Shown: positions 7,771 to 61,529 of the stretch, one piece after another | Layout of the letters: each line of letters opens with the position of its first letter | How positions within the stretch are numbered: the first letter of the stretch is position 1 | IMG/VR virus record: IMGVR_UViG_3300044711_000095 | Coordinates: 1-64,000 of that record | Source of the DNA: a virus | Taxonomy: Duplodnaviria; Caudoviricetes | DNA length: 64,000 bases | Strand: one strand, 5' to 3' | Notes under the pieces: generated by a model | Seen by the model: only the letters and a program-made list of their open reading frames with translations | What the model was told of the DNA's origin: nothing | Databases searched by the model: none | Translations under genes and position numbers: made by a program

Positions 7771-7811
7771 CGAGATGGTGTCGCATTAGGCATTGGTGCG
7801 ACACCATCTCG
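7771..7811. terminator. Perfect 15-bp inverted repeat (hairpin), terminator or processing site
   Basis: CGAGATGGTGTCGCA-11 nt-TGCGACACCATCTCG right after the stop; no U-tract. Confidence 0.5.
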
Positions 7812-7854
7812 GCACGGCATATCGGCGGCTCTCTGACCAAGAGTGGGGGCGTGA

Positions 7855-9489: not shown

Positions 9490-9791
9490 TGGATGTCGCG
9501 AAGTTCAGCCGGTTCACTCCGGGCGTGCATTTGGCGCAGCAGCGGGCACCGCAGCCGTGGGATGTCCCCCAGTTGGGGCGGGTCACGAAGGTGACTGCGG
9601 CGGGGGCGTGGTTCGAGTTGCTGTCGTCGCCGGGGAACCCGTTCGGGCCGGCACCGTGGGGTCTCGGGTCGTACGCGACGGTCGCGGCGGCGATCACGGC
9701 CGGGTGGAAGCCGCTGGTCGGTGACACGTGCCTGGCGGTGTTCGCGGGTATCGGCCCCGGGTCGCCTGTCGTCCTCGCTTGGTGGAGGTGA
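9489..9791 (+). CDS. Baseplate spike/gpV-like small protein
   Basis: Position between hub and gp25; OB-fold-like G.VT.V...P.VGD.CL.VF pattern. Confidence 0.6.
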   Translation: MDVAKFSRFTPGVHLAQQRAPQPWDVPQLGRVTKVTAAGAWFELLSSPGNPFGPAPWGLGSYATVAAAITAGWKPLVGDTCLAVFAGIGPGSPVVLAWWR

Positions 9792-9794
9792 CGG

Positions 9795-10106
9795 GTGACG
9801 GTCCCACATTTCGCGGTCCCGTTCCGGGTGGGCGGTAACGGTGCGTTCGTGGTGAACGAACAGGACGGGCTCGACGACATCGTCGAAGCGGTGGCGTGTG
9901 TGATCGCCACCCCGGTCGGGTCGCGGGTCGAGGTCCCCGGGTTCGGTGTCCCCCGCTACGAATTCGGGACGCCGCTGCCGGAGGAGATCGTCGCGGCGGT
10001 CGCTGAGTGGGAGCCCCGCGCCGACATCGGCGTGGACGTGGCCGCTGCCCTCGGGGACCTCGGGGAGATCACCGACGTCGCGGTGGCCGTCAAACCGCAC
10101 CTTTAA
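9795..10106 (+). CDS. Baseplate wedge gp25/GpW-like protein
   Basis: PFR.G.NG....EQ...DI...V..VIATP.GSRVEVP.FG...EWEPRA. Confidence 0.85.
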   Translation: MTVPHFAVPFRVGGNGAFVVNEQDGLDDIVEAVACVIATPVGSRVEVPGFGVPRYEFGTPLPEEIVAAVAEWEPRADIGVDVAAALGDLGEITDVAVAVKPHL

Positions 10107-10127
10107 CGATCAGGGAACGGAGGGCGT

Positions 10128-13288: not shown

Positions 13289-13388
13289 CCGCCCGCCGGA
13301 GGCCATCGCCGACGTCGTGGTCCCGATCCTGACGGCCGCCTGAATCCCGCGGCGGGCCAACGCCAGGCTGCCGCAGAGGGGACGTCTG

Positions 13389-13724
13389 ATGGCGGAGGAC
13401 GACGACCAGTTCGTGGCCGGCCGACGCGCTGGCGAGGTCGCTGAGCGACTCTCCGGCCACGACAAGCACTTCGCGGCCATCAACGGGAGCATCGCCGATC
13501 TCGCCACGGAAATGCGTTCGCTGGTGCTGGCCGTGCAGCGTCTCGGTGACGCGATGACCGCGGACCGCGCCACGGTCTTGACGACCGCCGCGGCCCTCAA
13601 GGAAGCGGAGTCCGCGCGCCGTGACCGCAGCGACCAGTCCTGGTCGCCCTGGTCGAAGGCGTTGGCCCTCGCTGGCGGTGTCGCGGCCCTGGTCGGGGCG
13701 TACCTGGCGCTCCGGCCCCGCTGA
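13389..13724 (+). CDS. Coiled-coil protein with C-terminal TM helix (lysis-associated membrane protein)
   Basis: Hydrophobic C-term ALALAGGVAALVGAYLAL; directly before endolysin. Confidence 0.7.
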   Translation: MAEDDDQFVAGRRAGEVAERLSGHDKHFAAINGSIADLATEMRSLVLAVQRLGDAMTADRATVLTTAAALKEAESARRDRSDQSWSPWSKALALAGGVAALVGAYLALRPR

Positions 13725-21908: not shown

Positions 21909-21927
21909 GGCTGGTCTCCAGACGTGG

Positions 21928-21964
21928 GGAAGGGGGCCTGACACACGTATACGTCGGCCCCTTC
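21928..21964. other. Hairpin between ncRNA array and Ro60 RBS
   Basis: GAAGGGGGCC..GAC / GTC.GGCCCCTTC stem. Confidence 0.5.
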
Positions 21965-30575: not shown

Positions 30576-30622
30576 ACCGGGTGACCTGGATCTCGACGGG
30601 GGTCTAGGCCAGGTCACCCGGT
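30576..30622. terminator. 14-bp perfect inverted repeat before replication operon
   Basis: ACCGGGTGACCTGG...CCAGGTCACCCGGT. Confidence 0.5.
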
Positions 30623-30761
30623 GCGATACGTCCACTCCAGTGAGGGAGTAGCAACATGGCATCAAGCTTGGGGACCTGCGGTCAAGTCCCCGGCGCGACC
30701 GGCTCCGGGTCGAGCCCCTCGCCCAAATGGGCATGGTGACCCGCGCGTGGGCCGCGGAGTC

Positions 30762-31841
30762 ATGGTCGATGGGCACCGACCGGCTGTCGAATGGGTCACG
30801 TCGATCCCCCGGGAGTGGGGCGTGACGCCGCCGGAGCGCCTCGTCTTGATGTGCTTGGCGTGTGACGCTTTCGACTGGGAGTCCGCCCCCGGGTATGACG
30901 CAGTCGCTGAATGGACGGGAATGCAGCGGTCGTCGTGCGCCGAGATTCTGACCCGGCTCTGCGAGGGCGCCTCAACGCGACCCGCGCTGCTTGAAAAGAT
31001 TTCCACAATGGGCCGGCGGCGCACCATCTTTCGCCTTCTCGGCAAGGAAACGGGTTCCGCTCAACCGTCCGGCGGGGCCGGACGGTTCGGGGGTGGGCCG
31101 GACGCTGACGCGGACGAGGCCAACCGTCCGGCGTCACCGGACGGTTCGACCGACGAGATGGGCGAAGGGGACAGCGAACCGTCCGGCCGCACAGGACGGT
31201 TCAACCGTCTGGCCGAGCCGGACGGTTCGGGCCAACCGTCCGGCGTCACCGGACGGTTAGGACGCGGCGCGAACCGTCCGGCCGCACAGGACGGTTCAGC
31301 ACTGCAGGAGCCGTCAACCGTCGGCGAACCGTCGGCGAACCGTCCGGCCGGGCCGGACACGCCCTTAACCCTTAACCCAACTACGTCTCTTGACTCACCT
31401 TCCGAGGGGGGTACGGGGGGAGACGCGTCGCAGCAAGCTGCTCCGCCAGCCAAGACCAACTCAGCCAGGGGGCACCGGATCCCGGCCGACTGGGTGCCCA
31501 GCGTGGCCAAGCGGACGACTCTCCGCGAGAAATACGACCGGCCCAATGACTGGTGGCTCGACGAGACGGAGGCTTTCAGGAACCATTTCCTGGCCAGCAC
31601 CGGCAGGAATGCGTCGAAGACGAATTGGGACCTGGCGTTCCACAACTGGATCAAGGAGGCGATCCGCCGGGAAGGCGGCCCGAACGGCGGCCGTCGCTGG
31701 GCCCCCAACGGATCGCCGAGCGGGTCGAAGGCCGACGACGCGATCAAGGACATGGCTGCCCGCGCGGCGGCGATCAAGGCGGCGAAACAGACCGCGAACG
31801 GCAACACCCAACCCCAACTCGCCATCGAAGGATCATCGTGA
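30762..31841 (+). CDS. Replication initiator (lambda O-like; N-terminal wHTH)
   Basis: TPPERLVLMCLA..SAPGYDAVAEWTGMQRSS; C-term RGHRIPADWVP...FRNHF...NWDLAFHNW; followed by loader and DnaB. Confidence 0.8.
   Translation: MVDGHRPAVEWVTSIPREWGVTPPERLVLMCLACDAFDWESAPGYDAVAEWTGMQRSSCAEILTRLCEGASTRPALLEKISTMGRRRTIFRLLGKETGSAQPSGGAGRFGGGPDADADEANRPASPDGSTDEMGEGDSEPSGRTGRFNRLAEPDGSGQPSGVTGRLGRGANRPAAQDGSALQEPSTVGEPSANRPAGPDTPLTLNPTTSLDSPSEGGTGGDASQQAAPPAKTNSARGHRIPADWVPSVAKRTTLREKYDRPNDWWLDETEAFRNHFLASTGRNASKTNWDLAFHNWIKEAIRREGGPNGGRRWAPNGSPSGSKADDAIKDMAARAAAIKAAKQTANGNTQPQLAIEGSS
31063..31400. repeat. Replication origin: palindromic 25-bp iterons plus less GC-rich tract
   Basis: AACCGTCCGG-N5-CCGGACGGTT-like units at 31063, 31122, 31177, 31203, 31234, 31272; partial unit at 31338; then CCCTTAACCCTTAACCCAACTA. 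Confidence 0.8.
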
Positions 31842-32284
31842 ACGAACTCGACGAAGCCGACGTCTTGCGCATCCTCGCCAGGGTCAAGAGCTTCCACGGC
31901 CCGCAGGACGTCGGGGACACCGTCGTCGCGTCCTGGCTGCTCGCCCTGCAGCGAGCCGGTGTCCACAACGTGGACGACGCCGACGCTGCGGTGGTCGACC
32001 ACTACTCCGATACGTCGGCGAACCCCTGGATCACTCCTGGCGATGTGATCGCCCGGTACCGCACGATCCGCGCCGCGCGGCTCAAGAACATCGACTACGG
32101 CGACGTCACTCAGGACGTGGACGCGAACGACGCCGATGCTTACCTCGCGACGATCCGGCACCGGTACGCCGCCATCGCGGACGGCGCGACCCTCGCCCAA
32201 GCGAACGCCCTCCCCCTGCCGCCCGCCGCCGCGCACGCCGCGATCGGAACGGCCGCACGTCGGCAGATCGGGAGGGCGCAGTGA
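31838..32284 (+). CDS. Helicase loader/inhibitor-like protein
   Basis: ILARVKSF..Q.VGDTVVASWL...AVVDHY...WITPGDV; between initiator and DnaB. Confidence 0.65.
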   Translation: MNELDEADVLRILARVKSFHGPQDVGDTVVASWLLALQRAGVHNVDDADAAVVDHYSDTSANPWITPGDVIARYRTIRAARLKNIDYGDVTQDVDANDADAYLATIRHRYAAIADGATLAQANALPLPPAAAHAAIGTAARRQIGRAQ

Positions 32285-33624
32285 CCGCCGTAGAGGATCT
32301 CGCCGTGCCCGACGCCGGCCTCGGGTCGCTGCCCGCGGACCCGGACACCGAGCGGGCCCTTCTCGGTGCGTGCCTGGAGAGCCCCGCCGCGGTCGCGGAC
32401 GCGGTCGAGGCCGGTGTGACCGCGGCGGACTTCTACAGCCCGGGGCACGCCGCGGTGTGGGAATCCGTGTGCCGGGTCCCGGTCCCGGGGGTCGTGGAGG
32501 TCCGCGCGGACATGGACGCGCACGGGACGCTCCGGGCGCTGCCGAACCCCGCGTACCTGGTGACGTTGGGCCGGTATGCGGTGGCGGCGTCGGCCGGGTT
32601 CTACGCCCGCCGGGTGATGGGTTTCGCGGCCCGGCGCCGGGCGATCACCGCCGGGCAGCGGATCATGCAGGCGGGGTGGCGGCTCAGCGACCCGTCGGAG
32701 GTGCAGGCGGAGGCCGAGGATGCCGTCGCCCGGATCTCCGCCCCGGTGGACACCTCCACATGGTCACCGCTCGGCGAGATCGCCGGCGATGTGTGGGCCG
32801 AGTACCAGGCGACGAAGAACCGCGGGTACGTCGAGGGAATCCGTTGGGGGTACATCGACATCGACCGGGTCATGAACCCGCTGCAGCCCGGCGACCTGGC
32901 CGTGGTGGTGGCGTGGGCTGGGGGCGGGAAGTCGGTGGTCGCGTCGAACTTGGCGTTGGACGCGTCGATCGTTCAGGGCAAGCGGTCCCTGGTCCACGCC
33001 TTGGAGATGACGCGGCGGCAGTTGGGGCAGCGCTGGGCCGCGAAGACCGGCGGGCTGTGCCTCTCGAAAATCCTGGACGGGACTCTGTCGGAGGACGAGG
33101 AGTGTCGGTTCTGGGAGGCGCTCGCGGAGATGGAGGAGGCTCCGCTGATCGTGGACGAGGTCGGGTCGCTTTCGCTGTCGCGGTTGCGGGCGTCGATCCG
33201 CCGGCACAAGCCGGAGATCGTGATCGTCGACCAGATCCCGATCATGGAGGTGGATGATCCGGCGGGCCGGGCGTCTCGTGAGCAGGCCCTGACGAGACTG
33301 TCCTACGGGCTGAAGGAACTCGCGAAGGCCGAGGGCATCCCGATCGTCGCGTGTGCCCAGTTGAATTCCGCACCGCTGAACCGGGCCGAGAAGCTCCCCA
33401 CCTTGGAGGACATCCGCGAGTCACGGGGCATCGGGCAGGCCGCGACCATCGCGGTGTTCCTGTGGGACCCGTGCAAGGTCCAACCGGAGAGCCCACGCGC
33501 CGGGGAGATCGATTGGATCATCCGGAAGCAACGGCAGGGCCGCAGCGACTTGATCATCCCGATGGCGCAGCAGTTCCACTACTCCCGCCTGTACGACCTC
33601 GGCCGCGACCCGGAAGAAGCGTGA
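32281..33624 (+). CDS. dnaB: DnaB-like replicative helicase
   Basis: DTERALLGACL, LQPGDL.VV.AWAGGGKS, ALEM, IVDQI, LK.LAK...IPIVACAQLN, DIRESRGIGQAA. Confidence 0.95.
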   Translation: MTAVEDLAVPDAGLGSLPADPDTERALLGACLESPAAVADAVEAGVTAADFYSPGHAAVWESVCRVPVPGVVEVRADMDAHGTLRALPNPAYLVTLGRYAVAASAGFYARRVMGFAARRRAITAGQRIMQAGWRLSDPSEVQAEAEDAVARISAPVDTSTWSPLGEIAGDVWAEYQATKNRGYVEGIRWGYIDIDRVMNPLQPGDLAVVVAWAGGGKSVVASNLALDASIVQGKRSLVHALEMTRRQLGQRWAAKTGGLCLSKILDGTLSEDEECRFWEALAEMEEAPLIVDEVGSLSLSRLRASIRRHKPEIVIVDQIPIMEVDDPAGRASREQALTRLSYGLKELAKAEGIPIVACAQLNSAPLNRAEKLPTLEDIRESRGIGQAATIAVFLWDPCKVQPESPRAGEIDWIIRKQRQGRSDLIIPMAQQFHYSRLYDLGRDPEEA

Positions 33625-49249: not shown

Positions 49250-50398
49250 GTGGCGACACGCGCCTCCGACATCGAGAAACTCCTCCGCCACGCCGAAACC
49301 CAAGGCTGGCGGATAGAGGCCAGGAAGAAATGCTTCATCGCGTTCCCACCACTCGATGCACCCGACCCGAAACCCGTGTCCATACCAAAATCACCGAACG
49401 GAATCAGGATGATCCAGAACGTGACCTCTGCGTTACGGCGCGGAGGATTCAACCCCGACACCGACCGCCACGAAGCCGTAACTACCGCCATCGAGTCCGG
49501 CCACCGCGACATCGTCCCCTCCAGCCGAACCAACCCCCCGCCCACCCGTGAGCAGGTCGAAGTGAGACTGAACGGTGCACCCCTCGTAGCGAACGGCCGG
49601 CCCGTCAACGGCGCCCACAAGGCACCCGTGACCGTCATCACCAGGGAACCCGTCCCCGGCAGGCCCGGTATCGAACAGGTCCTCCTGTCCGACGGCGCGG
49701 AAGTGTTCGGGTGCGCGATCTGCCCAGACCTGCGGGCCCGCACCGCCAGCGAAGCAGCCAACCACCACCACCACAACCACACCATGAACCGCGGGAGGGA
49801 CGGCGAACCGGCACCCGCCGGGACCCTGATCGCCGCCATCCTCCGCGACGAAATCGTCACCGGTAGCGGCGGTTGGACGTACGGGCAGAACATGCCCACG
49901 GGCCGGGACCTCGCCGCCCGGTTCGGGGTGTCCGGGTTCACCATCTCTCAAGCGTTCAAACCGTTGATCGCCGAAGGGCTGGTCTCCACCCAGGCTGGCC
50001 ATCGTGCGGTCGTCACCTACAAGCCCGCCCCCGCCCTCGCCGTGACCCCGGAGCCCACCATGCCGACGCCACCCACACCTGCCCTGCTCGCCGGGTCCGT
50101 CCGCCCGGTCACGGCACCCGCCAAGCCCACCCCACCAGCCCGACCCGCAGCGACCGCACCGGACCCGCAGGCCGAGATCCTGAAGGTGATCGGGCAGTTG
50201 CGGGACATCGCCGGGCAACTCGACGACGGCGGCGCCTCCGCAGCCCAGGCCGCGGAACTACGCCGGCAGGTCGCGCAGTCGAACGCGGAACGTGACTCGG
50301 CCCTCGCGAAAGCCAACGCCGCCACCACCCGCGCCGACAAGGCCGAGAAGGAGCTGGAGGCGTTGAAGGGCGCGTTGAAGGTCATCCAGTCGCTGTAG
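49250..50398 (+). CDS. Multidomain protein: HicA-like fold + C2H2-like Zn finger + GntR wHTH + coiled coil
   Basis: AETQGWRIE...VSIPKSP..R...N....LRRGG; CAICP...HHHH; LRDEIVTG...MPTGRDLAARFGVS..TI.QA...LIAEGLV. Confidence 0.7.
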   Translation: MATRASDIEKLLRHAETQGWRIEARKKCFIAFPPLDAPDPKPVSIPKSPNGIRMIQNVTSALRRGGFNPDTDRHEAVTTAIESGHRDIVPSSRTNPPPTREQVEVRLNGAPLVANGRPVNGAHKAPVTVITREPVPGRPGIEQVLLSDGAEVFGCAICPDLRARTASEAANHHHHNHTMNRGRDGEPAPAGTLIAAILRDEIVTGSGGWTYGQNMPTGRDLAARFGVSGFTISQAFKPLIAEGLVSTQAGHRAVVTYKPAPALAVTPEPTMPTPPTPALLAGSVRPVTAPAKPTPPARPAATAPDPQAEILKVIGQLRDIAGQLDDGGASAAQAAELRRQVAQSNAERDSALAKANAATTRADKAEKELEALKGALKVIQSL

Positions 50399-51441: not shown

Positions 51442-51777
51442 TCAGGCGTGTCCGGCGGCTATGTGGGTGTCGAGGCGCATACGGAGCACGGAGTTCTCGG
51501 CCCTCAGCTCCGCGACCTCGGATCGCAGGCCGATGACTTCGCTCTGGAGTCTGACGATCTGGATGGCCAGAGGGGTTTCCCGTTTCCGGGTCGAGTCCCG
51601 GAGATCCCTGAACGCCTCGACGTCCCTCCGGCGGTACTTGCGGCGGCCCTTGCGGTGGTCACCGCCTCCGGTCCGTTCGGCGGGTTCGATCGGAAGCCTG
51701 GGGACGGTGGTCCGGTCGACCCCGAGTAGCTCGGCGACTTGCTGCACTCCGAGCAGTTCGTTGGGGTCGTTCGGCAC
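51442..51777 (-). CDS. Xis/MerR-like HTH protein with coiled coil
   Basis: AAGGAGGAGG RBS; ELLGVQQVAELLGVDRTTV...RRKYRRRDVEAF. Confidence 0.75.
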   Translation of the reverse strand: MPNDPNELLGVQQVAELLGVDRTTVPRLPIEPAERTGGGDHRKGRRKYRRRDVEAFRDLRDSTRKRETPLAIQIVRLQSEVIGLRSEVAELRAENSVLRMRLDTHIAAGHA

Positions 51778-51880
51778 GTTCCTCCTCCTTGGCGTGTAGG
51801 TACCCCCGAGGTCTCGGTACCCGCCGGGCAAGAGTAGGTGCAGGCCAGGCATGCTCCCCATCATACAGATTGCGGCATAG

Positions 51881-51910
51881 TTGCGTTAGACCGCGTCTAG
51901 AAGCTACGGT
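51881..51910 (+). promoter_or_regulatory. Candidate promoter of the transfer operon with palindrome
   Basis: TTGCGT-18 bp-TACGGT; TAGAC-CGC-GTCTA overlaps the spacer. Confidence 0.4.
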
Positions 51911-51952
51911 GGAGGGGAGCCACCAACTTCCCCCACCGAACGGAACCCCCTC

Positions 51953-52510
51953 ATGTCCCTCGCCGAATGGGCCGTCCTGCAGGCCCTGTCCGCCGGTGAC
52001 GACCGGACCGCCACATCGGCCAGCCCCGTCCGCTGCGAGGGCTGCGACGGCCGCCGGACCGACGTCCTCACGAACCGGCCGCGCCGTGTCTTCGGCATCC
52101 GCATCGGGTGGATCAACGAGGCGTGGTGTACGGCCTGCTACCGCCGGGACGTCGAACGGTCCATCCCCCGCCGCACCGAGGTGTGGTGGCTCCCGGGGGG
52201 CCACCCGACGACGTGGGGTCCCCTCCTGGAGTCCCTCCCCGAGGACGGCGTCTCCTGTGCCTGCTGCGCGGGGGTCCGCGGACCCATCGAGTACGCGGTG
52301 TGGGAGCCCACCGACGCGCCGGGCGCGGCCGTGGAGTCCGCGTGGCTGGTCTGCACCCGCGACTTCGACGACGCCCACCGGGACGACGTGTGGCCCGCCG
52401 GCACCACAGCCGCGTACATCGGCCGCCAGTACGACGATGGCGCCATCGAAGCCGCTGACGCCGCGTACGACGACCGGGTGGCCCTGCACTTCGCGAAGGA
52501 CACGAAATGA
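51953..52510 (+). CDS. Zn-binding hypothetical protein
   Basis: Multiple CxxC pairs. Confidence 0.6.
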   Translation: MSLAEWAVLQALSAGDDRTATSASPVRCEGCDGRRTDVLTNRPRRVFGIRIGWINEAWCTACYRRDVERSIPRRTEVWWLPGGHPTTWGPLLESLPEDGVSCACCAGVRGPIEYAVWEPTDAPGAAVESAWLVCTRDFDDAHRDDVWPAGTTAAYIGRQYDDGAIEAADAAYDDRVALHFAKDTK

Positions 52511-52770
52511 CCGGCCCCGCCGCCGGGGTCCTGTACGTGACCGCAGAAACGGCCCGGCACCTCGCCGCCGTCGAACACGACCTGGCCGTCACGGCCGCCG
52601 AACTCGCCGACTACCGGACATCCCTGGATTTGGTCCACGACGCGGTCGCTGAGGCGTGGATCGCCCGTTCCCTGCCCGGCACGGACCCGTCGGCCATCCT
52701 CGAACGCCTCATCGACAAGATCACCGCCGCTGCCCCGGCACCGGCCAACCCGAACCGGAGCGCACCGTGA
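52507..52770 (+). CDS. Hypothetical protein
   Basis: ATGA/GTGA overlaps. Confidence 0.55.
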   Translation: MTGPAAGVLYVTAETARHLAAVEHDLAVTAAELADYRTSLDLVHDAVAEAWIARSLPGTDPSAILERLIDKITAAAPAPANPNRSAP

Positions 52771-53195
52771 CCGTCCAGACCACCACCTCCGATGCGGCAT
52801 TCGCTGCCCGTATCCGGGCTCTGCGCGCCGCGCAGTGGTTCGCCGCCGAGTACGCGGCCCTGAAGTCCGCGGACCTGTCCAGGGTCCGGGCCACGATGAC
52901 CCGCCCCTGGGCCCGCCACCAGGCGATCAGCTGCCTGGTCGCGTCCGCCGGGTTCGGGCTGTTCGGGTGGGCGTTCGGGGTGTCCCTGATCTTCCTCGCG
53001 ATGATCCCGTTGGGTGTCGCGGTCCCGGTCGCCGGGGACGTCCTCGCGAAGCGGCACCGGACGGGGGAGCCGTTGACGGGCCGGGTCGTCGCCGACGTCC
53101 TGGTCACGTCGATCGCGGTCACCGTCCCCATCATCGCCGGTGCGGTGATCTTCGCGCTGGTCCTGCAGCGGTTCCTCGGTGGGGGCGCCCCGTGA
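52767..53195 (+). CDS. Three-TM membrane protein (spread-protein-like)
   Basis: GGAG RBS; three hydrophobic helices. Confidence 0.6.
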   Translation: MTVQTTTSDAAFAARIRALRAAQWFAAEYAALKSADLSRVRATMTRPWARHQAISCLVASAGFGLFGWAFGVSLIFLAMIPLGVAVPVAGDVLAKRHRTGEPLTGRVVADVLVTSIAVTVPIIAGAVIFALVLQRFLGGGAP

Positions 53196-53566
53196 GCATG
53201 TTCATTGCGTTGGCCCAGTCCGCTGGTGACCGGATCGCCGCCCGCCACCGGCCCCCCGGCCAGGCGGTCACGACCCACGCGGGACCCGCCACCCCGCCCG
53301 TGGTCGACGTGCCCCTCGCATGGGTGGAGGCGTTCGAGGAGGGGATGGCCCGGTACGGGTGGACCCGGTCCACCACCGGCCGGCCCGGCGCCGGCCGGGA
53401 GTACCACGACCCTGATCACGTCCTCGCCGCGACAGCCCTCGTGGTCCTCGCCGACATGGTCCACACCGGGCGGGTCACCGCGGACCAGCTCGCCGGCCTC
53501 ACCCCACCCCTGTCGACCGCCCAACTGCCCGCACCGGCCCGACCCGCGCTGGAGGCCCCACAATGA
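53192..53566 (+). CDS. Hypothetical protein
   Basis: GTGA/ATGA overlaps. Confidence 0.5.
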   Translation: MSMFIALAQSAGDRIAARHRPPGQAVTTHAGPATPPVVDVPLAWVEAFEEGMARYGWTRSTTGRPGAGREYHDPDHVLAATALVVLADMVHTGRVTADQLAGLTPPLSTAQLPAPARPALEAPQ

Positions 53567-54015
53567 CCCGCCCCGACCTGTCGCCCGTCACCGCCGCCCT
53601 GGCCCCCATCGTGCCCGTCACCCACGCCGGGTGGGGCCACCTGCCGCACCCGAACCCCCAGGTCGAGGCACAGTGCGACCGGCTCCCCGACGACGTGTTC
53701 CGCCTCCACACCGGCGACGCCGCCGCCCTGAACCGGCTCGCCGCAGTCTCCGTCCCGTTCTCGTTCCCCGCCCCCGGTGAGGCGTCCAGCCCCGTCCGTC
53801 GGGCCGAGCACTGGACGGACGGGGCGTGGGACGGGTACGTCACGTTCCACGCCGACCAGGCGGCCGACGTCACCGCGTGGGCGTGGGCGCTACGGCAACT
53901 CACGGCCGTCCAACTCGATCAGGTCCTGGTGGGGCTGTCCGGTGTCCACTTCCGGGACGACATCGCCGTGTTCGTGGAGCGGGTCAAGGGGTTCGCGTGG
54001 GGGGTGCCGGCGTGA
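53563..54015 (+). CDS. Hypothetical protein
   Basis: GGAGG RBS; overlaps. Confidence 0.55.
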   Translation: MTRPDLSPVTAALAPIVPVTHAGWGHLPHPNPQVEAQCDRLPDDVFRLHTGDAAALNRLAAVSVPFSFPAPGEASSPVRRAEHWTDGAWDGYVTFHADQAADVTAWAWALRQLTAVQLDQVLVGLSGVHFRDDIAVFVERVKGFAWGVPA

Positions 54016-54311
54016 GCAGGGACGCGACGATGCGGGCCCGGGTCACCCTGTGGGCCGTCGCGGGGGCCGTCGGGTGGGTGGCGTCCCACGTGACGTTCCC
54101 GGCGCCGTGGGGCGCGTTCGACATGGGCGTGTCCGGCCACGGCCGCTTGTTCTGGGCCGCGTTCGCGGTGCTGGCTGGGTGGAACCTGGCCCGCCACTAC
54201 CGCGACCCCGGCCGTCGCCGCGCGACCCCGCCGCCCGCGGGTCCGACCGTCCAGGTCGTCCCGCCGTCCACCACCACTCAGCCGACCGTCCGGGTGGAGG
54301 TGCCCCAGTGA
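54012..54311 (+). CDS. Two-TM membrane protein
   Basis: Two hydrophobic helices plus Pro/Thr tail. Confidence 0.55.
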   Translation: MSRDATMRARVTLWAVAGAVGWVASHVTFPAPWGAFDMGVSGHGRLFWAAFAVLAGWNLARHYRDPGRRRATPPPAGPTVQVVPPSTTTQPTVRVEVPQ

Positions 54312-54823
54312 GCGAGGGCACCGAACTGGACGTCGTGGACGTCGACGTCGAGGACACCCCCGGAACCGACCTCGCCATCCCTGGGGAGGCCGCCCTGGAG
54401 GAGGTCGTCGACGGGGTGATCGAACCGGAGGACACCGAGCCCGGGGAGATCGTCGTTGACGACATCGGACTGGCGTACCCGGAGCACCAGCCCCGGCAGG
54501 CCACGTCGGACGCCGCCGACGCGGCGACCACTGGTGAGGGATTCTCCGGCGCTGGCTTCAAGTGGACGAAGGACGGCACCGGGAACGGACCCGGCGGGGG
54601 CGGCGGAAGGTCGAAGCCGGGCCGGCGCAGGCTGGGGCGCCGCGGTTCCGGCGGTGGTGGCGGTTCGGGGGGTGGGTTCCATTTCTCCCTGATCGGCGCG
54701 ATCTTCCCGAACGCCGCCTTGATCAAGACAGGGTCGATTGCCTCGAACAACGCGTCCGGCAACGCCCCGTCCGTGATCTCCACCGGTCGACCCGCCCGCA
54801 AGCCCCGCCCCCGACGGAAGTGA
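54308..54823 (+). CDS. Acidic N-term / Gly-Arg-rich C-term hypothetical protein
   Basis: GGAGG RBS; directly before TraB. Confidence 0.5.
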   Translation: MSEGTELDVVDVDVEDTPGTDLAIPGEAALEEVVDGVIEPEDTEPGEIVVDDIGLAYPEHQPRQATSDAADAATTGEGFSGAGFKWTKDGTGNGPGGGGGRSKPGRRRLGRRGSGGGGGSGGGFHFSLIGAIFPNAALIKTGSIASNNASGNAPSVISTGRPARKPRPRRK

Positions 54824-54833
54824 GGTGCCAGCC

Positions 54834-57035
54834 GTGACGACCTTCGATGAGGCCCCCACCACCACGACCAACCCCGGTGTCACGACGGGCGCCGACATCG
54901 TCGGTGACGCCACCGACGCGTTGAAGGCCGCCACCGGCCGTGTCGCGCCCGCCGCTGGCGCTGCCGCGGCCCGGACCAGGGACGCGGGCCGCAAGGCCGC
55001 CGAGAGCGCCGGGAAGGCCGCCAGGGGCTCCCTACGGCTCATGGTGGCCGGCCTGGCCACGGCGTGGCCGGCGTACCTCGACTGGCGGGCCGTCACCGAA
55101 GCCGACCCCGACATCGACGCCGCCCGCGCCGCCGGGTCCTTCGACCGGGTGAAAGATTTCCAGGCGCAGCAGCGCAACGAGGCCCTGCACCGCACCGAGC
55201 TGGCCGCCGCCGCCGCCCGCGTCGGTGTCGCGGTCCTGTTCGGCGGGTGGCTCCTCGCGACCATCGCCCACGTCGCGGCCTGCGCCGCCGCGTTCGCGAT
55301 CTCCCGGGAGATGAAACCGAACCCGCAGAAGTTCCCCGAACCGAAGGCCCGCGCCCAGGTCCGGTTCCGTCACGCCCTGGTCGCCGCCCTCGTTTCCGCG
55401 GCCCTGACGTTCGTGGACGCCGCCGTCCTCGGCGTCGGATGGGGGGTCCTGCCGTTCACCGCCCACCCGGCGGGGTTCTGCTGGGGCTGGGACCGCGTGT
55501 TCCTGGCCTGGCCGGGCGCGGCGCTGGTCCTGGTGCTGTTGGCGCTCATGAAGATGGCGTGGAACGGGACCGTCGCCGATGACCTGCCGTCCGACCTGGC
55601 GCCCGCCGAGGTGGAGAAAGTCGACACCACCGAGAACGTGATCATCGCCGCGTTGAAGGCGTCCTCGATCAAACTGCCCCCCGACGCCGACCCGGCCATC
55701 GTGTCGCCCGGCGTCACCTGGCACGCCGGCGGCACCGTGTGGCGCTGCCACCTCGACACCGCCAAGGGCGGCCGGGGCCCGTCCGCCGCACCCATCGTCG
55801 AACCGAAACCCGCCGAAGACTTCGCTGCCCGCCTCGGCCTCGGCCCGAAGCGTCTCCACATGCACATCGACCCTGACCTCGGGTCCCGCGTCGAACTGAT
55901 CGGCGTCATCGGCGACCCGTGGGGTCCCCCGACCAGGTCCCCGCTGATGGACGTCGACCGGTGGGACCTGTGGCAGGGCGTCCCGTTCGGGATGGACATC
56001 ATGAAGCAGCGGGTCGACGTTCAGGTCGCGTTCCGTAACCGCCTCCACGGCGGCGCACCCGACGCTGGGAAGTCCACCTCCACGTACCCGGTGCAGGCCG
56101 CGTTCGTCCTGTCCCCGAACTCCCGGCTGTGGGTCCTGGACGGCGGGGAAGTCGACACGAAACCGCTGTACGACCACGGGCTGACCTACCGGTGGTGCAA
56201 CAACAACCAGGACGACGCCCTCGACATCCTCATGGAGCTGGACGCGGAGGTGGAGCGCCGGCAGACGATGCTCGGCGAGTACGGGAAGGACCACCCCCGG
56301 CTGGGGAAGAAGGTTTCTCTCCAGTTCTTCGCCGATCACGGCCTCGGGTTCGACCTGCTGCTGTGGGACGAGATGGCCACGTTCACCAACTCCGGGGACA
56401 AGGCCCTCGCCCGGGACATCATGAAAACCGGTACGTCGATCTTCCAGCGGTGCCGGAAGGTCGGGATCCACGTCCTGCTGTCCACCCAATCCCCGTCCAG
56501 TCTCGCGATCGACACGGACGGCCGGGACGTCATCTCCGACCGGTACGCCCTGGCCTGCTCCACCCCCCAAATGTCCGACAAGATCCTCGGGCAGGGGCAT
56601 GTCGCCGAGGGAACGAACGCCGCGAAACTGACCGTCGGGGACCGCCTCGGGTACCTGTCGGACTCCTCCGGGGACCGCCTGGTCCGTGCGGACTACCTCA
56701 CCGACGACGACATGGACATCGTGTACGCCCGCGGGAAAGCCCTACGGAAGGGCCGCGTGGACACCAGGGCCGGGTCGGTCCCCCCGCTGGTGTCCGCGGC
56801 GGTACGTCTGCTGCGGGAGCGGGGCGTCGAGTGGATGCACACCGCGGAAGTCGTGGGCCGGCTGCGCGCGGCCGGCCATGACCTGTCGGAGGGTGTGAAG
56901 GGGCAGCGGGAGTTGGCTGCCGCCCTGAAGCCGTTCGGTGCCGCGTCGGTCGAGGTGCGCGCCGATGGGGGCCGCGCCCGGTACCTGCTGGACGACCTGG
57001 AGGCCGCCCTCCGCAAGGCTGGTGGCGGACAGTGA
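54834..57035 (+). CDS. traB: TraB-like FtsK/SpoIIIE DNA translocase (actinomycete conjugative transfer)
   Basis: N-terminal TM helices; Walker A GAPDAGKS, Walker B LLWDE, RKVGIHVLLSTQSP; C-terminal wHTH (WMHTAEVVGRL). Confidence 0.85.
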   Translation: MTTFDEAPTTTTNPGVTTGADIVGDATDALKAATGRVAPAAGAAAARTRDAGRKAAESAGKAARGSLRLMVAGLATAWPAYLDWRAVTEADPDIDAARAAGSFDRVKDFQAQQRNEALHRTELAAAAARVGVAVLFGGWLLATIAHVAACAAAFAISREMKPNPQKFPEPKARAQVRFRHALVAALVSAALTFVDAAVLGVGWGVLPFTAHPAGFCWGWDRVFLAWPGAALVLVLLALMKMAWNGTVADDLPSDLAPAEVEKVDTTENVIIAALKASSIKLPPDADPAIVSPGVTWHAGGTVWRCHLDTAKGGRGPSAAPIVEPKPAEDFAARLGLGPKRLHMHIDPDLGSRVELIGVIGDPWGPPTRSPLMDVDRWDLWQGVPFGMDIMKQRVDVQVAFRNRLHGGAPDAGKSTSTYPVQAAFVLSPNSRLWVLDGGEVDTKPLYDHGLTYRWCNNNQDDALDILMELDAEVERRQTMLGEYGKDHPRLGKKVSLQFFADHGLGFDLLLWDEMATFTNSGDKALARDIMKTGTSIFQRCRKVGIHVLLSTQSPSSLAIDTDGRDVISDRYALACSTPQMSDKILGQGHVAEGTNAAKLTVGDRLGYLSDSSGDRLVRADYLTDDDMDIVYARGKALRKGRVDTRAGSVPPLVSAAVRLLRERGVEWMHTAEVVGRLRAAGHDLSEGVKGQRELAAALKPFGAASVEVRADGGRARYLLDDLEAALRKAGGGQ

Positions 57036-57036
57036 C

Positions 57037-57176
57037 GACCCCTGCGGTGACTCCTGCCGCGACCCCTGGCCGACCCCTGCGGCATCCCTGCACGTCAGGG
57101 GTAACACATGACCCCCGCAGGGGTCCCGCAGGGGTTCGTGCAGGGGTCCCGCAGGCCAGCCCGAAACAACCCCTGT
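57037..57176. repeat. clt-like array of 9-bp GACCCCTGC repeats, direct then inverted, ~11-12 bp period
   Basis: Direct at 57037, 57049, 57061, 57072, 57083; inverted GCAGGGGTY at 57117, 57128, 57140 (partial 57151). Confidence 0.75.
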
Positions 57177-57220
57177 CGTCACCGAATGTGACGCTTGTAT
57201 CGATACAGGACGGAGCCGAG

Positions 57221-58192
57221 ATGGCGCCCGAGACGACCTACCCGGCCGCCCCTGCGGCGCCCACCCACCCACAGCGCGCCGACGCCGCCCGCCTGCGCGA
57301 CGAAGCCCGCCAGGTCCGCACCGCCAGCTCGGTCCTGCCCTGGGTGCTGGCCCTCCTCGGCCTCGGGAGCCTCGCCTTCACGATGGTCAACGTCTTCACC
57401 CTCGCCGTGAAGCACGGTGTCCCCCGGGAAATCGCGTGGCTCTTGGACCCGCTGATGTCCATCAGCCTCCTCGCCGTACTCATCGGCGACTCCGTCCTGT
57501 CCCGGTTCGGGGTCCGCTCCCCGGCCTGGGCTCAGACCCTCAAGTACGCCGCCGGCCTCGCCACCCTCGCCATGAACATCTGGCAACCGGTCGCCGACCA
57601 CGACCGTGCCGGGGTCCTCATCCACGCGTCCGTCCCGGCCCTACTGGTGCTGCTCGCCGAAGCCACCCCGGCCATCCGGCGTCTGTTCAGCGACCTCGCC
57701 GACGACCTTCACCGACGCGCCCTGGCGGCCGAACTGGATGCCGACGAGAAGGACGCCGCCAACGCCCGCCGGAAGGCCATCGACGACGCCGCGACGGCCG
57801 CCGAGATCGCCCGCCTCGACGCGGAACGGAAGGCCGCTGAGAAGGTCGCCCGAGCGGCCGACAAGGACACCCCGAGGACCACCTCGACGTCCGCCCCACC
57901 GCCCCCGCGACGGACGTCCAAGAAGGACGCCCACGCCCTGCCACCTGGCCTTACGCCCAACGAAATCGCCGTCTACTCGATCATGCTGGGGCGGGGGCAG
58001 ATGACCCGGGCGTCCATCTTCACCGACTCCGGGCTGCCCGAACGGGGCGCCAAGGACGCCCTCGAACGGCTCTGCTCCCGCGGCCTTGTCGCGTCCGTCA
58101 GCCGGGGCGTGTACGAGACGTCGGGGCCCGCTGACCCTGAGCCAGAAATGGACGCCGCCGCGGTCGCCGAGACGGCCGGTGAAGGGTCGTGA
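57221..58192 (+). CDS. SpdA/DUF2637-like plasmid spread membrane protein with C-terminal wHTH
   Basis: GGAG RBS; AWLLDPLMS..LLAVL, ATLAMNIW, LIHASVPALLVLLAE; coiled coil; HTH TRASI..DSGL..GAKDALERL..RGLV. Confidence 0.7.
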   Translation: MAPETTYPAAPAAPTHPQRADAARLRDEARQVRTASSVLPWVLALLGLGSLAFTMVNVFTLAVKHGVPREIAWLLDPLMSISLLAVLIGDSVLSRFGVRSPAWAQTLKYAAGLATLAMNIWQPVADHDRAGVLIHASVPALLVLLAEATPAIRRLFSDLADDLHRRALAAELDADEKDAANARRKAIDDAATAAEIARLDAERKAAEKVARAADKDTPRTTSTSAPPPPRRTSKKDAHALPPGLTPNEIAVYSIMLGRGQMTRASIFTDSGLPERGAKDALERLCSRGLVASVSRGVYETSGPADPEPEMDAAAVAETAGEGS

Positions 58193-58767
58193 GCGGGTAC
58201 CGGGGGGCCCTCCTCAACCCGGCGGTGTTCCTCCCGACGTGGGGCCGGTACGCGGATCGATGGTGGCACCGGGCGTCGTCCTGTCTGGCCACGCTGGAGG
58301 GCGCCCACGCCCTGGGGTGGCCGCTGTGGCAGGTCATCTCCGGGGCGGCGGTCTCGGCGTTCTTCGGCGGGGGGAAGTTCTCACCGGACTGTGACTTGAG
58401 GTGGGCAGCGAAGAAGATCGACGCCGCGTTGCCCGACGAACGGCTCGGCGGACACGGGCCCCTCGGGCACCATGGGTGGACGCACAGCCCGTGGGTTCCC
58501 CTACTCGCCATCGTGGGGATCTACGCCGTCGCGCCGTGGGCGTGGTTCGCGCTCGCGGGGGCTGCCGCATGGCTCTGGCATGATCTTGGTGATGCTCTGG
58601 TCGGCCGTGGCGGGGCGATGATCCCCGCCGGGATACCTCTCTGGCCCCTGCCGGGCCGGCTAGCGGTCGGGACGTTCAAGTCCGGTGGTTTGACCGGCCG
58701 GGTGCTCACGGTCTGCTGCTGGGCATCGATCGGGTGGCAACTGTGGTCGTGGAAGGGGGGTGTGTGA
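58189..58767 (+). CDS. YdjM-like metal-dependent membrane hydrolase
   Basis: PDCD...HHGWTHSP...HDLGDALVGRGG..P..PL.P. Confidence 0.7.
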   Translation: MSGYRGALLNPAVFLPTWGRYADRWWHRASSCLATLEGAHALGWPLWQVISGAAVSAFFGGGKFSPDCDLRWAAKKIDAALPDERLGGHGPLGHHGWTHSPWVPLLAIVGIYAVAPWAWFALAGAAAWLWHDLGDALVGRGGAMIPAGIPLWPLPGRLAVGTFKSGGLTGRVLTVCCWASIGWQLWSWKGGV

Positions 58768-58955
58768 TGGCCGACGGAACCGGTGGCGTCCTCATCGGCG
58801 GTGTCCTCGCTGTCCTCGGGGCGCGGTGGGTGTGGAACCGGGTGATGTTCCCGGTCCGGGTGTGCCCGCCATGTAAGGGCACCGGGGAGATCGTGTCCCC
58901 GGACGGGAAGCGGGTCCGGCCGTGCTCGAAGTGCGGGTCGACGGGCCGGCTGTAG
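58767..58955 (+). CDS. TM plus DnaJ-type Zn finger small protein (AICE-like accessory)
   Basis: CPPCKGTG...CSKCGSTG. Confidence 0.65.
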   Translation: MADGTGGVLIGGVLAVLGARWVWNRVMFPVRVCPPCKGTGEIVSPDGKRVRPCSKCGSTGRL

Positions 58956-59668: not shown

Positions 59669-59980
59669 CTACCGGGACACCGGTTTCCCGGCGACGGCGG
59701 CAGCGACGGCGGCGCGGGCCTGGGGGATGTCCACGACCACGTCCCGGCCGTAGTCGACGGTCGGCGCCCAGTCCGGGATGGGGTGGCTGGAGCACGCCGC
59801 CCAGTCCAGCTTGGCCGGGTCAGCGCCGGAGAGGGCGCCCGCGTACAGGTACCTGGTGACCTGCGGCCCATCCCCGGTGTAGTGGGGTCCGCCGGTCCCA
59901 CACTGGCAGCACCCCTCGGGGATGCCGGCGTAACGGCGGTCGCGCCAGGTGGCGAGGATGGTCTTGAGAAGGTGCCGCAT
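59669..59980 (-). CDS. Hypothetical protein (CxxC)
   Basis: GGGAG RBS. Confidence 0.6.
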   Translation of the reverse strand: MRHLLKTILATWRDRRYAGIPEGCCQCGTGGPHYTGDGPQVTRYLYAGALSGADPAKLDWAACSSHPIPDWAPTVDYGRDVVVDIPQARAAVAAAVAGKPVSR

Positions 59981-60376: not shown

Positions 60377-60648
60377 CGTCCCGCCTCCTGTCGATACTCG
60401 GCCCGGATCGCCCGGGTGCACGCGTCCATCGCCCCGGCCACGTCGGGGTGGCCAGCGTTCCGCAGCCGGTCCGCCAGGATCTTCCGGCCCAGGGTGACCT
60501 CGCTGTCCCAGGCGCCCGGGTCGGGGGCGACCGCCTGCTGGGCGAGGGCGGTGCGCAGGTACTCGGTCGGCCGGCGGCGCCCCGGCGGGGCGTCCTCGAC
60601 GGCGGCGAGGATCTGCGCGTCGGTGGGGGTGTTGGTCGTGGCGCTCAT
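60373..60648 (-). CDS. Hypothetical protein
   Basis: GGAG RBS; overlaps. Confidence 0.55.
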   Translation of the reverse strand: MSATTNTPTDAQILAAVEDAPPGRRRPTEYLRTALAQQAVAPDPGAWDSEVTLGRKILADRLRNAGHPDVAGAMDACTRAIRAEYRQEAGR

Positions 60649-60953
60649 CGGTCCGTCTCCCCGCCCGTGAGGTCGGCCTGCTCCCACATGCCGGGCAGCT
60701 CGGCGGCCTGCGTCGCGTCGTCGACCAGGGCCTGGTGCTCCCCGACGAGGCGGCGCAGGATCTCCAGCGACCCGAGGGACTCGAAGCCGCCGCCGTCGAT
60801 GAGCTTCCAGGCCAGCGCCGTGCCGGCGTGGGCCTCGGCGATCTCCAGCACCTGGTCGACGTCCCAGTTGGCGCGGGCCGTCTCGATGACGACGCCATCG
60901 TGTGCGACCTCCCAGGGGCCGCCGTCGTCGTCGCGGGTCACGGTGTACGGCAT
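60645..60953 (-). CDS. Hypothetical protein
   Basis: GGGAAG RBS. Confidence 0.55.
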   Translation of the reverse strand: MPYTVTRDDDGGPWEVAHDGVVIETARANWDVDQVLEIAEAHAGTALAWKLIDGGGFESLGSLEILRRLVGEHQALVDDATQAAELPGMWEQADLTGGETDR

Positions 60954-60956: not shown

Positions 60957-61529
60957 TCAGCTTCCCTGCACTTGGTCGGCGATGGCGGCGCGGATGAAGA
61001 CGACCGATGACGGGTCCACGACGTCGTACTCCACGTCCGGCCGGATGGTCTCGGTGTCGCCGCCGTGGAACGCCACGGACCAGGTCTGCGAGTCCAGGTA
61101 CGGCATCGTGATCCGGAAGATCATCCGGGCTCCGCGGTGGTCCAGACTGTCCAGCCAGTCGGTGAGCTTCAGATCACGGCCGAACGTCTTGCGGATCCGG
61201 GTGTACCACTGTGCGTGCTCGGGCAGCGTGGTCACGTCAATGCCGGTCGGCAGCGGGTTGTCGATGTACCCGGCGACCGGCGCCGGCACGATGTACGACT
61301 GGCCGGGCGGGCACGTGAATACCACGGCCCCGGCGTCGTCACGGACCACGTACCGGTCGCCCTCGAACGTGGCCTTCAAGGTCAGATGCTGCACGACGGC
61401 GGTGACGGCAGCCTCGACCCGCTCCTGGTGCGGCTCGCGGTCGGTGCCGGTTCCGGGCCACTGGCATCCGTCGCCGGCGGCGTTGCCGCAGATGGGGCAG
61501 GCGACGGTGAGGGCGTCGGGGCTGGTCAT
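60957..61529 (-). CDS. Hypothetical protein with N-terminal Zn finger
   Basis: AGGAG RBS; ALTVACPIC..AAGDGC...PH..R. Confidence 0.65.
   Translation of the reverse strand: MTSPDALTVACPICGNAAGDGCQWPGTGTDREPHQERVEAAVTAVVQHLTLKATFEGDRYVVRDDAGAVVFTCPPGQSYIVPAPVAGYIDNPLPTGIDVTTLPEHAQWYTRIRKTFGRDLKLTDWLDSLDHRGARMIFRITMPYLDSQTWSVAFHGGDTETIRPDVEYDVVDPSSVVFIRAAIADQVQGS

Follow-up and report, generated by a model that had tools for sequence, protein, structure and literature searches.

A probable Streptomyces-plasmid-type DNA transfer module carried by an uncultured actinophage with a contractile tail

The stretch of DNA analysed here (the window) comprised the first 64,000 nucleotides of IMGVR_UViG_3300044711_000095, a linear IMG/VR virus fragment of 82.5 kb that was assembled from a metagenome and is estimated to be 83% complete. 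Third-position GC (GC3) revealed an 11-gene plus-strand operon between 51,953 bp and 58,955 bp (Table 1). ATGA or GTGA start-stop overlaps join nearly all of its genes, pointing to translational coupling, and this agreed with the original prediction of a tightly coupled operon. All 11 genes were intact and had a high GC3. A single 348-aa ORF had been proposed between 53,777 bp and 54,823 bp, whereas GC3 resolved this section into two genes in different frames, which we have designated orfF and orfG. OrfA had no match in Pfam, PHROG or NCBIfam.

Table 1. Coordinates of the operon genes, the repeat array and neighbouring features of the record
Feature	Coordinates	Strand	Description
GntR-containing protein	49250..50398	+	382 aa; central wHTH, Pfam GntR 35.4 bits (residues 194-255); candidate Kor/TraR-like regulator
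HTH protein, divergent from operon	51442..51864	-	140 aa; Pfam HTH_17 24.4 bits (cut-off 27); candidate regulator or Xis-like protein
Divergent intergenic region	51865..51952		88 bp, between HTH gene and operon
orfA	51953..52510	+	185 aa, acidic, Cys-rich; GC3 0.92
orfB	52507..52770	+	87 aa; ATGA overlap with orfA
orfC	52767..53195	+	142 aa, pI 11.4; three predicted TM helices
orfD	53198..53566	+	~122 aa; frame-specific GC3 and candidate starts
orfE	53563..54015	+	150 aa; GC3 0.94, ATGA overlap
orfF	54012..54311	+	99 aa, basic, pI 11.8; N-terminal half hydrophobic; GC3 frame switch
orfG	54308..54823	+	171 aa; N-terminus acidic, middle Gly-rich, C-terminus basic
traB-like gene	54825 (or 54834)..57035	+	736 or 733 aa; membrane-anchored FtsK-type dsDNA translocase
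clt-like array of ACCCCTGC	57037..57148		8-mer repeats starting two bases past the traB stop
orfI	57221..58192	+	323 aa, ATG at 57221; three TM helices, charged coiled-coil linker, C-terminal TrmB-type wHTH
orfJ	58189..58767	+	192 aa; weakly YdjM-like membrane hydrolase, Pfam YdjM 18.9 bits (cut-off 29)
orfK	58767..58955	+	62 aa; one TM helix, two CxxCxGxG zinc-knuckle motifs
103-aa gene	59669..59980	-	homologue in tra operon of metagenome contig L002, 46% identity, E 2e-17
102-aa gene	60645..60953	-	homologue in L002, 34% identity, E 4e-8
Phage zinc-finger domain gene	60957..61529	-	right flank
Lambda-O-like initiator	67061..67804	-	right flank

The largest product, TraB, has four to five predicted membrane helices in its N-terminal part (residues 123–240), followed by a motor with the Walker A motif GGAPDAGKST and an invariant DE pair at residues 515–516. 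The AF2 model of TraB (pLDDT 84) had the FtsK motor 2iut as its top Foldseek match (E 2.5e-14), and the TraB family profile matched FtsK in the PDB (E 3.7e-33). TraB also matched PHROG 1358 (E 1.9e-19) and had no match to Pfam FtsK_SpoIIIE; to the NCBIfam model plasmid_TraB, which is matched by most of the family (34/54 members), it scored 26 bits, the cut-off being 800. The predicted membrane-bound FtsK-type ATPase was thus recovered in its helices and motor fold, while its C-terminal winged helix is a predicted topology, the isolated model of this domain being of poor quality.

By sequence comparison, the window pump is kin to the TraB proteins of Streptomyces plasmids and not to chromosomal FtsK. 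Its motor is approximately 30% identical to those of the experimentally studied TraB proteins of pSVH1 and pSG5, and phmmer with the motor scored 97 bits for pSG5 and 94 bits for pSVH1, compared to 11 bits or less for four chromosomal FtsK proteins. In a tree built without actinobacterial FtsK and EccC outgroups, the query clade fell within the TraB-like group, which was split from FtsK with an SH-aLRT of 100, in line with the proposed placement. A tblastn search with TraB matched 42 plasmids, 41 of them from Streptomyces; the same type of search against 50,697 phage records gave no match at 1e-5. Three further contigs, which came from other collections, carried variants of traB in the same cluster (≥90% identity). 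As one relative carries a swapped motor, the region recombines; a mosaic relative is located on a 59-kb contig.

Analysis of the DNA following traB revealed five direct copies of ACCCCTGC (at 57,038, 57,050, 57,062, 57,073 and 57,084 bp) and four inverted copies (57,095, 57,117, 57,128 and 57,140 bp), with a spacing of 11–12 bp. Five of the seven exact copies in the whole 82.5-kb record fall in this array. Allowing up to one mismatch, the array holds 10 copies in 110 bp, whereas 30 Markov simulations never gave more than 5 per 130 bp, and the clustering is significant. The array occupies the same position as the TraB-binding clt repeats of pSVH1, GACCCGGA, and contig L002, which encodes a 37%-identical relative, has an analogous AGACCC array across its traB stop. 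The window TraB would be expected to bind the array, and the discovery of this cognate clt-like site strengthens the reading of the operon as a transfer module.

The genes on either side of traB include several that encode small membrane proteins. OrfC resembles Spd proteins in architecture only. OrfI, expected to be an SpdA/DUF2637-like protein, has the appropriate architecture of three TM helices, coiled coil and wHTH, but it did not match DUF2637 even at E ≤ 10. It matched Pfam TrmB (33 bits) and PHROG 25954 (E 2e-13), and clusters of DUF2637+HTH and SpdB_N+HTH proteins in the ESM Atlas (0.76–0.83) are leads only. A 9,934-bp contig encodes a copy with 99% identity to the product of orfI; one of the contigs carrying a traB variant is also 9,934 bp in length. 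Assignment of OrfJ as YdjM-like was not upheld at the Pfam cut-off, although its homologue after traB on L002 reached 29.8 bits. OrfK, which also matched DnaJ_CXXCXGXG weakly, is the TM-zinc-finger protein that had been anticipated. Sequence and profile searches detected no homology between the accessory proteins and known Spd proteins.

Upstream, a GntR gene and an Xis-like gene had been described; the former was confirmed and the latter matched HTH_17 weakly, below the cut-off. GntR regulators adjoin the tra operons of pSVH1, NBC plasmids, L002 and pZL12. Downstream, the edge of the block is not sharp because the 103-aa and 102-aa genes co-occur with this TraB on L002.

The record originates from a phage that is uncultured, has a contractile tail and belongs to a high-GC actinomycete, and its identity as a tailed phage is solid. 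It encodes a sheath, tape measure, baseplate and endolysin, together with DnaB, a beta clamp, a helicase and methyltransferases. Contig L003, which is 97–99% identical to the record, has the protease, scaffold, capsid and connector genes that the record is missing. In the phage collection, the tail sheath had matches to phages of Arthrobacter, Gordonia and Brevibacterium only; the plasmid collection gave none. The block had been described as continuous with phage genes on both sides; phage identity was borne out by the sheath and replication genes, whereas the right flank (59–82.5 kb) consists mostly of genes without an assigned function, with a lambda-O-like initiator and a phage zinc-finger domain among them. 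No host genes were seen in this flank. As originally reported for the window, no relaxase, T4SS (VirB4), integrase or RepSA was found, and this extended to the whole 82.5 kb, with a serine recombinase also lacking; about 17% of the genome is missing from the record. ParA/ParB and a plasmid Rep were likewise not found in this ~83%-complete record, and the predicted hybrid is supported as a TraB transfer module in a tailed phage but not under the label of phage-plasmid. Overall, the original observation was partly confirmed and its interpretation is partly supported.

In Streptomyces plasmids, a TraB-type pump, docking repeats and membrane helpers move DNA between hyphae. The block is probably a dsDNA transfer module of this type that is integral to the genome of the contractile-tailed actinophage. 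The divergent promoter region would drive the operon, probably under the control of the HTH protein, the GntR-containing protein or both. TraB would enter the membrane via its N-terminal helices and form an FtsK-like hexameric ring, and its C-terminal winged helix would dock on the ACCCCTGC repeats 3′ of traB. With this site in cis, the motor could pump the phage dsDNA genome across a hyphal contact or septal cross-wall, with OrfC, OrfF, OrfI, OrfJ and OrfK as a putative accessory spreading complex. Since it carries a pump, docking repeats and membrane helpers, the phage may also spread without virus particles; if so, it would be able to pass between hyphal compartments or between mating hyphae without a capsid as well as in virions.

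The pump might instead serve the intracellular life of the phage, by moving or segregating its DNA across vegetative cross-walls or into prespore compartments, or alternatively by interfering with FtsK-dependent development of the host or with incoming plasmids. In the former case the pump would take the place of the partition system that is missing and allow vertical carriage in spores. We regard an intracellular role as a less likely but realistic explanation. ParA/ParB were not found in the record, and a site that acts in cis and is specific to the phage genome suits directed segregation equally well; additionally, FtsK-like genes of cultured Streptomyces phages have been considered in the context of host development (PMC13587820) and SpdB2 homologues in actinophages have been proposed to aid the spread of phage DNA (PMC4447253). 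Nevertheless, of the relatives that have been characterised, the closest are conjugative TraB proteins, and the operon layout, membrane partners and GntR neighbour copy a plasmid transfer region. The two explanations overlap, since plasmids use one machinery for both intramycelial spreading and intermycelial transfer.

Derivation of the block from an AICE or plasmid, as a separate element that recently inserted into a phage or prophage as mere cargo and is possibly decaying, is rather improbable. Its GC content of 72.1% is 3–4 points above the 67–70% found elsewhere, the region recombines, as the swapped motor of a relative indicates, and L002 has an AICE-like layout (GntR, NUDIX, TraB, YdjM) beside a peptidase M20, with no phage genes noticed. 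Apart from the higher GC, the suggestion of an element nested in a prophage found no support: the whole 82.5 kb lacks an integrase, serine recombinase and RepSA, and the window lacks a tRNA gene. The att-like repeats envisaged around the block were absent, direct repeats in its flanks being at the level of chance (six shared 12-mers compared to an expectation of 5.2, with none reaching 14). The intact, tightly coupled genes with high GC3 and the edges blurred by two outside genes shared with L002 also argue against this. A chimeric junction between phage and transfer module is conceivable in a linear fragment assembled from a metagenome, but we consider it very improbable. Gene order was unbroken with no repeats at either edge, codon bias was uniform, a role as tra regulators suits the GntR and HTH genes upstream, a mosaic traB relative is located on the 59-kb contig, and the complete records of pZL12 and pPaSha2 have the same combination.

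A phage with a transfer module has already been described. According to the passages on them in PMC3583192 and PMC4170104, pZL12/phage ZL12 (GQ919031; Zhong et al. 2010, J Bacteriol 192:3747) and pFP4 (Chen et al. [quoted passage not shown] Like the window phage, pZL12 is a tailed-phage genome (~90 kb) with an FtsK/SpoIIIE-like tra gene (pZL12.71c), large membrane neighbours and a GntR regulator. The similarity to the window TraB is remote (hhalign 95% probability, E 3e-8; no BLASTP match). Unlike the ~83%-complete window record, pZL12 has ParA/ParB and an integrase, and none of its genes is annotated as the tail sheath that the window phage has. The Pseudonocardia alni 'plasmid' pPaSha2 (CP052773), a 41.9-kb circular record, is a complete tailed-phage genome with terminase, portal, protease, capsid, holin, Bet and integrase genes. 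Its DUF2637 gene overlaps an FtsK gene whose product is 28% identical to residues 365–729 of the window TraB; pPaSha2 is smaller, has an integrase and no annotated sheath, and its two-gene module belongs to another TraB sub-clade.

pSVH1 and pSG5 share with the window a membrane FtsK-like pump and a nearby GntR regulator. The 8-bp array of pSVH1 (four direct copies and one inverted) lies 16–107 bp past the traB stop, and its spd genes are translationally coupled (PMC4447253), as in the window operon. They differ in being rolling-circle plasmid replicons, in the repeat word and in their accessory proteins, which share no detectable sequence similarity with those of the window; in the window, traB comes after seven small genes and is itself followed by a membrane/HTH protein. 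AICEs of the pSAM2, SLP1 and pMEA300 type likewise use TraB for single-protein dsDNA transfer and have Spd-like genes and GntR (Kor) control, and the GntR-NUDIX-TraB order of L002 is that of AICEs. In contrast, the window block lies in phage DNA without an integrase/excisionase pair, RepSA-type gene or tRNA att site. The 'FtsK-like DNA translocase' genes of the Streptomyces phages Gilgamesh, Mischief19, Jaresh and AndoPrime (PMC13587820) are actinophage-borne FtsK-superfamily ATPases that match plasmid TraB weakly (E ~1e-7). These genes have no reported clt or Spd-like operon, whereas the window has features resembling both, a clt-like array and genes that are Spd-like by architecture.

The genes of the 51953-58955 block were called from the GC content of third codon positions (GC3), as GC along the window is high (65-73%). 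This frame-specific analysis, together with inspection of start codons, revealed eleven plus-strand genes, nearly all of which were coupled via ATGA or GTGA overlaps. The 348-aa ORF at 53777-54823, which the original prediction had treated as one gene, was found by GC3 to be two genes in different frames, and the gene after traB, previously taken to start at 57032, begins at the ATG at 57221. At the level of its parts, the reading of this block as a transfer module is well supported; its function, plasmid state and regulation we infer from the sequence.

Features of the phage record. Positions are those of the window unless preceded by G000 (the whole 82.5-kb record) or L003 (a near-identical 22-kb IMG/VR contig)
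Feature	Position	Strand	Remarks
Tail sheath	737-2254		Left end
Tape measure	3450-5420		Left end
Baseplate wedge	10128-11588		Left end
Endolysin-like proteins			Left end
Ro60/TROVE-like RNA-binding protein	20298-21944	(-)	Full-length; PHROG 850, 4e-44
Initiator/DnaB-helicase pair	30621-33624		
DnaB-type helicase	31390-33624		Middle of window
RecA/DNA-repair-like protein, second helicase, DNA methyltransferases, beta clamp			Middle of window
orfA	51953-52510	+	
orfB	52507-52770	+	
orfC	52767-53195	+	Three TM helices, pI 11
orfD	53198-53566	+	
orfE	53563-54015	+	
orfF	54012-54311	+	
orfG	54308-54823	+	
traB	54825/54834-57035	+	Followed by a 185-bp gap
ACCCCTGC copies	57038, 57050, 57062, 57073, 57084	+	
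ACCCCTGC copies	57095, 57117, 57128, 57140	(-)	
orfI	57221-58192	+	
orfJ	58189-58767	+	
orfK	58767-58955	+	
Lambda-O-like initiator	G000 67061-67804	(-)	PHROG 8540, 3e-29
Head maturation protease, scaffold, major head protein, HNH endonuclease, head-tail adaptor, head closure protein	L003		Extra genes of L003
HNH endonuclease	L003 3682-4410		Between major head protein and connector genes; PHROG 99, 2e-47

Analysis of the block's TraB (P0001) revealed the Walker A sequence GGAPDAGKST, and residues G415, K416, D515 and E516 were invariant across 54 relatives. A profile of these relatives matched FtsK motor structures in the PDB at 3.7e-33, above TcpA and EccC. The AlphaFold model of P0001 had a pLDDT of 84 (>90 for residues 270-645), and its best Foldseek matches were likewise FtsK motors (target TM 0.65-0.69), with 2iut at E 2.5e-14 and TM 0.65. 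The N-terminal membrane anchor was predicted by hydropathy to have 4-5 helices between residues 123 and 240, and the model placed long helices at 106-246. The FtsK-type ATPase was thereby confirmed in its Walker A/B motor and its modelled fold, with a predicted N-terminal membrane anchor. Residues 654-731 of the full-length model run helix-strand-helix-helix-strand-strand (pLDDT 91-98), the succession that a winged helix would show. Folded from single sequence as an isolated domain, the C-terminus reached a pLDDT of 61, too poor for a fold search, and it gave no Pfam HTH match.

Assignment of this motor to the plasmid transfer proteins, as opposed to chromosomal FtsK, came from comparison of sequences. 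P0001 matched PHROG 1358, 'FtsK/SpoIIIE-like', at 2e-19; it had no match to Pfam PF01580 even at E<=10 and no other Pfam match. Against the curated NCBIfam model plasmid_TraB (NF041214) it scored 26 bits, well short of the equivalog cut-off of 800. Among the 54 family members, 34 matched plasmid_TraB, 22 EccCa and 20 FtsK. The query motor scored 94-97 bits by phmmer against the TraB proteins of the reference plasmids pSVH1 and pSG5, whereas four chromosomal FtsK gave <=11 bits. A tree of 66 motors, constructed by a quick search without EccC, placed the query and ten relatives in one clade (SH-aLRT 100) inside a TraB-like group with pSVH1, pSG5 and NBC plasmid TraB, and this group was split from the four chromosomal FtsK at 100. 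The outgroup was non-actinobacterial FtsK (SAR86, Rhodospirillaceae, Nitrospinaceae), obtained from a contig scan with P0019 that gave only chromosomal FtsK of unrelated bacteria. The proposed check of TraB phylogeny against FtsK thus came out in favour of the plasmid transfer proteins, by tree and by phmmer, EccC being outside the tree. Additionally, tblastn matched P0001 to 42 plasmids, 41 of them from Streptomyces, including those encoding pSVH1 and pSG5 TraB (~30% identity across the motor). An exhaustive HMMER search found 956 relatives, of which about a dozen were full-length (31-53% identity, all metagenomic); close relatives of TraB or of its flanks were absent from IMG/VR and GTDB genomes.

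An array of ACCCCTGC begins 2 bases past the traB stop codon, with nine exact or near-exact copies located 2-113 bp after the stop at a spacing of 11-12 bp. The 82.5-kb record has seven exact copies, five of them within the array. Ten copies with <=1 mismatch were found in 110 bp, compared to a maximum of five per 130 bp in 30 Markov-shuffled genomes. An 11-mer with 2 mismatches showed no enrichment over the whole window (79 observed, 80 expected); the signal comes from exact and near-exact copies lying packed together in one place. In pSVH1, the positive control, GACCCGGA was present in four direct copies and one inverted copy 16-107 bp past the traB stop, and 8-bp repeats are the TraB recognition words of this plasmid (PMC4447253, PMC3583192). 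L002, a metagenome contig with a 37%-identical TraB, carries AGACCC three times in direct orientation past its traB stop and twice inverted immediately ahead of that stop. The candidate array fits clt, the cis repeats bound by Streptomyces plasmid TraB, in position, repeat length, phasing and a shared GACCC core, and would be the binding site of P0001.

Among the accessory genes, orfC, orfI, orfJ and orfK encode predicted TM helices and have overlapping start and stop codons, in line with small membrane proteins translationally coupled with traB. The SpdA/DUF2637-like protein of the original prediction was not recovered, as no accessory protein matched Pfam DUF2637 at E<=0.01 (hmmscan) or E<=10 (six-frame search) and none showed tblastn similarity to pSVH1 genes. 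Since Spd proteins are poorly conserved (PMC4447253), these results count more against a protein being an Spd than against its working like one. orfI encodes three TM helices, a charged coiled-coil linker and a TrmB-type wHTH (33 bits); in the ESM Atlas it lay near DUF2637+HTH or SpdB_N+HTH clusters at a sub-threshold 0.76-0.83, which we treat as a lead only. The YdjM-like assignment of orfJ was upheld in part: its own match is weak, but its post-traB counterpart on L002 reaches the Pfam cut-off. The expected TM-Zn-finger gene is orfK, with a TM helix and two CxxCxGxG knuckles.

The record itself, whose bases 1-64000 are the window, is 82,539 bp, linear according to IMG/VR and 83% complete (CheckV). 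Its sheath has ~30% identity to myovirus sheaths of Gordonia, Arthrobacter and Brevibacterium and no match in the plasmid collection. No head genes were found in the 82.5 kb; these are located upstream of the record's start, on L003, which is 97-99% identical to window 2-11022 and reaches 8.3 kb further upstream. Neither portal nor terminase was seen in the record, at its 83% completeness, or on L003. From the tail, lysis and replication genes and the head genes on L003, the source is a real contractile-tailed actinophage, its record cut within the structural operon. The 68-76 kb region was rejected as the site of head genes, having no PHROG, Pfam or phage tblastn matches. Within it, G000 72460-75120 holds a pair of large genes on the plus strand, of 460 and 410 aa, with zero matches in Pfam, PHROG and phage tblastn. 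An alignment with L003 also showed that 51 bp of the window (7767-7818) are replaced by ~1.28 kb (L003 16036-17316) immediately before a 544-aa minor-tail-like gene, probably through exchange or insertion of a tail-fibre/host-range segment.

The alternative of a separate AICE-like element nested in the phage was weighed against the surroundings of the block. AICEs have an integrase, an excisionase and an att site of their own, as a rule within a tRNA gene; here the excisionase side gave only a weak HTH_17 match. Of the predicted absences, those of integrase (tyrosine, PF00589; serine, PF07508), relaxase and VirB4 held throughout the 82.5 kb; that of RepSA lacked a working control, as PF20199 matched neither the record nor any control genome. 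The window encodes no tRNA gene, and the search for att-like repeats gave the chance level, with six 12-mers common to both flanks (5.2 expected) and none >=14. The block has a GC content of 72.1% (67-70% elsewhere), a difference that could fit its acquisition from a host plasmid or AICE some time ago. On L002 the order GntR, NUDIX, TraB, YdjM-like is AICE-like and lies beside a peptidase gene; this contig also holds homologues of window 59669-59980(-) and 60645-60953(-), both outside the block. An AAA_33/zeta-toxin-like kinase gene is located downstream of the L002 tra region (13018-13605, minus strand). The right flank, originally described as continuous with phage genes, consists largely of genes of unknown kind; it includes a phage zinc-finger domain protein and, at 67 kb, the lambda-O-like initiator. 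TraB variants of the same >=90% identity cluster are present on three further contigs from other collections, therefore the traB gene itself, as distinct from its join to the phage arms, is not an assembly artefact. orfI has a 99% copy on a contig of 9,934 bp, the length also of one of the three TraB-variant contigs.

The label of phage-plasmid was not supported, as neither ParA (PF13614) nor ParB (PF02195) was found in the 82.5 kb and the initiators seen, the DnaB-linked and lambda-O-like genes, are phage-type only. These two initiator regions may represent separate lytic and maintenance replicons.

A mosaic relative of TraB, P0005, is encoded by a 59-kb Logan contig. It shares 87% identity with P0001 over residues 1-265, whereas the motor and C-terminal domain share 26-31%, and in the tree its motor falls into another TraB sub-clade. 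This indicates that the membrane domain and the motor/specificity part recombine, and it is because of this identity split that cassette re-assortment is suggested. It is conceivable, though we think it rather unlikely, that this is a phage lineage without integrase or partition genes for which TraB and clt would be the main route of persistence and spread through the mycelium as naked dsDNA, its relatives re-assorting the specificity unit (motor, winged helix, repeat word) as a cassette. If so, transfer specificity would be an exchangeable phage trait, comparable to immunity or host-range cassettes. A functional module would give a second, capsid-free horizontal route in mycelial bacteria, independent of a virion receptor, so that phage, plasmid and AICE become less clearly distinct. 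Like TraB plasmids, elements of this type could mobilise host DNA too.

The search for other phages with TraB was split, with no tblastn match to P0001 in 50,697 phage records and FtsK genes on two phage-like elements filed or described as plasmids. pZL12 (GQ919031, 90.4 kb), a described Streptomyces plasmid-phage, encodes an FtsK/SpoIIIE-like gene, pZL12.71c, that matches the P0001 family profile (hhalign 95%, E 3e-8); pZL12.20c was rejected as its tra gene (hhalign 3%). pZL12 also has large neighbouring genes and a GntR regulator and, unlike the 82.5-kb record, encodes ParA/ParB and an integrase. The record deposited as the Pseudonocardia alni plasmid pPaSha2 (CP052773.1) proved to be an entire tailed-phage genome, with genes for terminase, portal, protease, capsid, tail, holin, Bet and integrase, and its DUF2637-FtsK pair adjoins the integrase/regulator region. 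A few cultured Streptomyces phages have weaker 'FtsK-like DNA translocase' genes (PMC13587820), and SpdB2 homologues in phiC31 and VWB have long been proposed to aid the spread of phage DNA (PMC4447253). The principle is already published, for pZL12 and for pFP4, a second such case, and is met repeatedly in public data, which makes the advance an incremental one. What the present record adds is an example with a contractile tail, a separate TraB clade so far found only in metagenomes, and an unusually clear candidate pair of pump and site.
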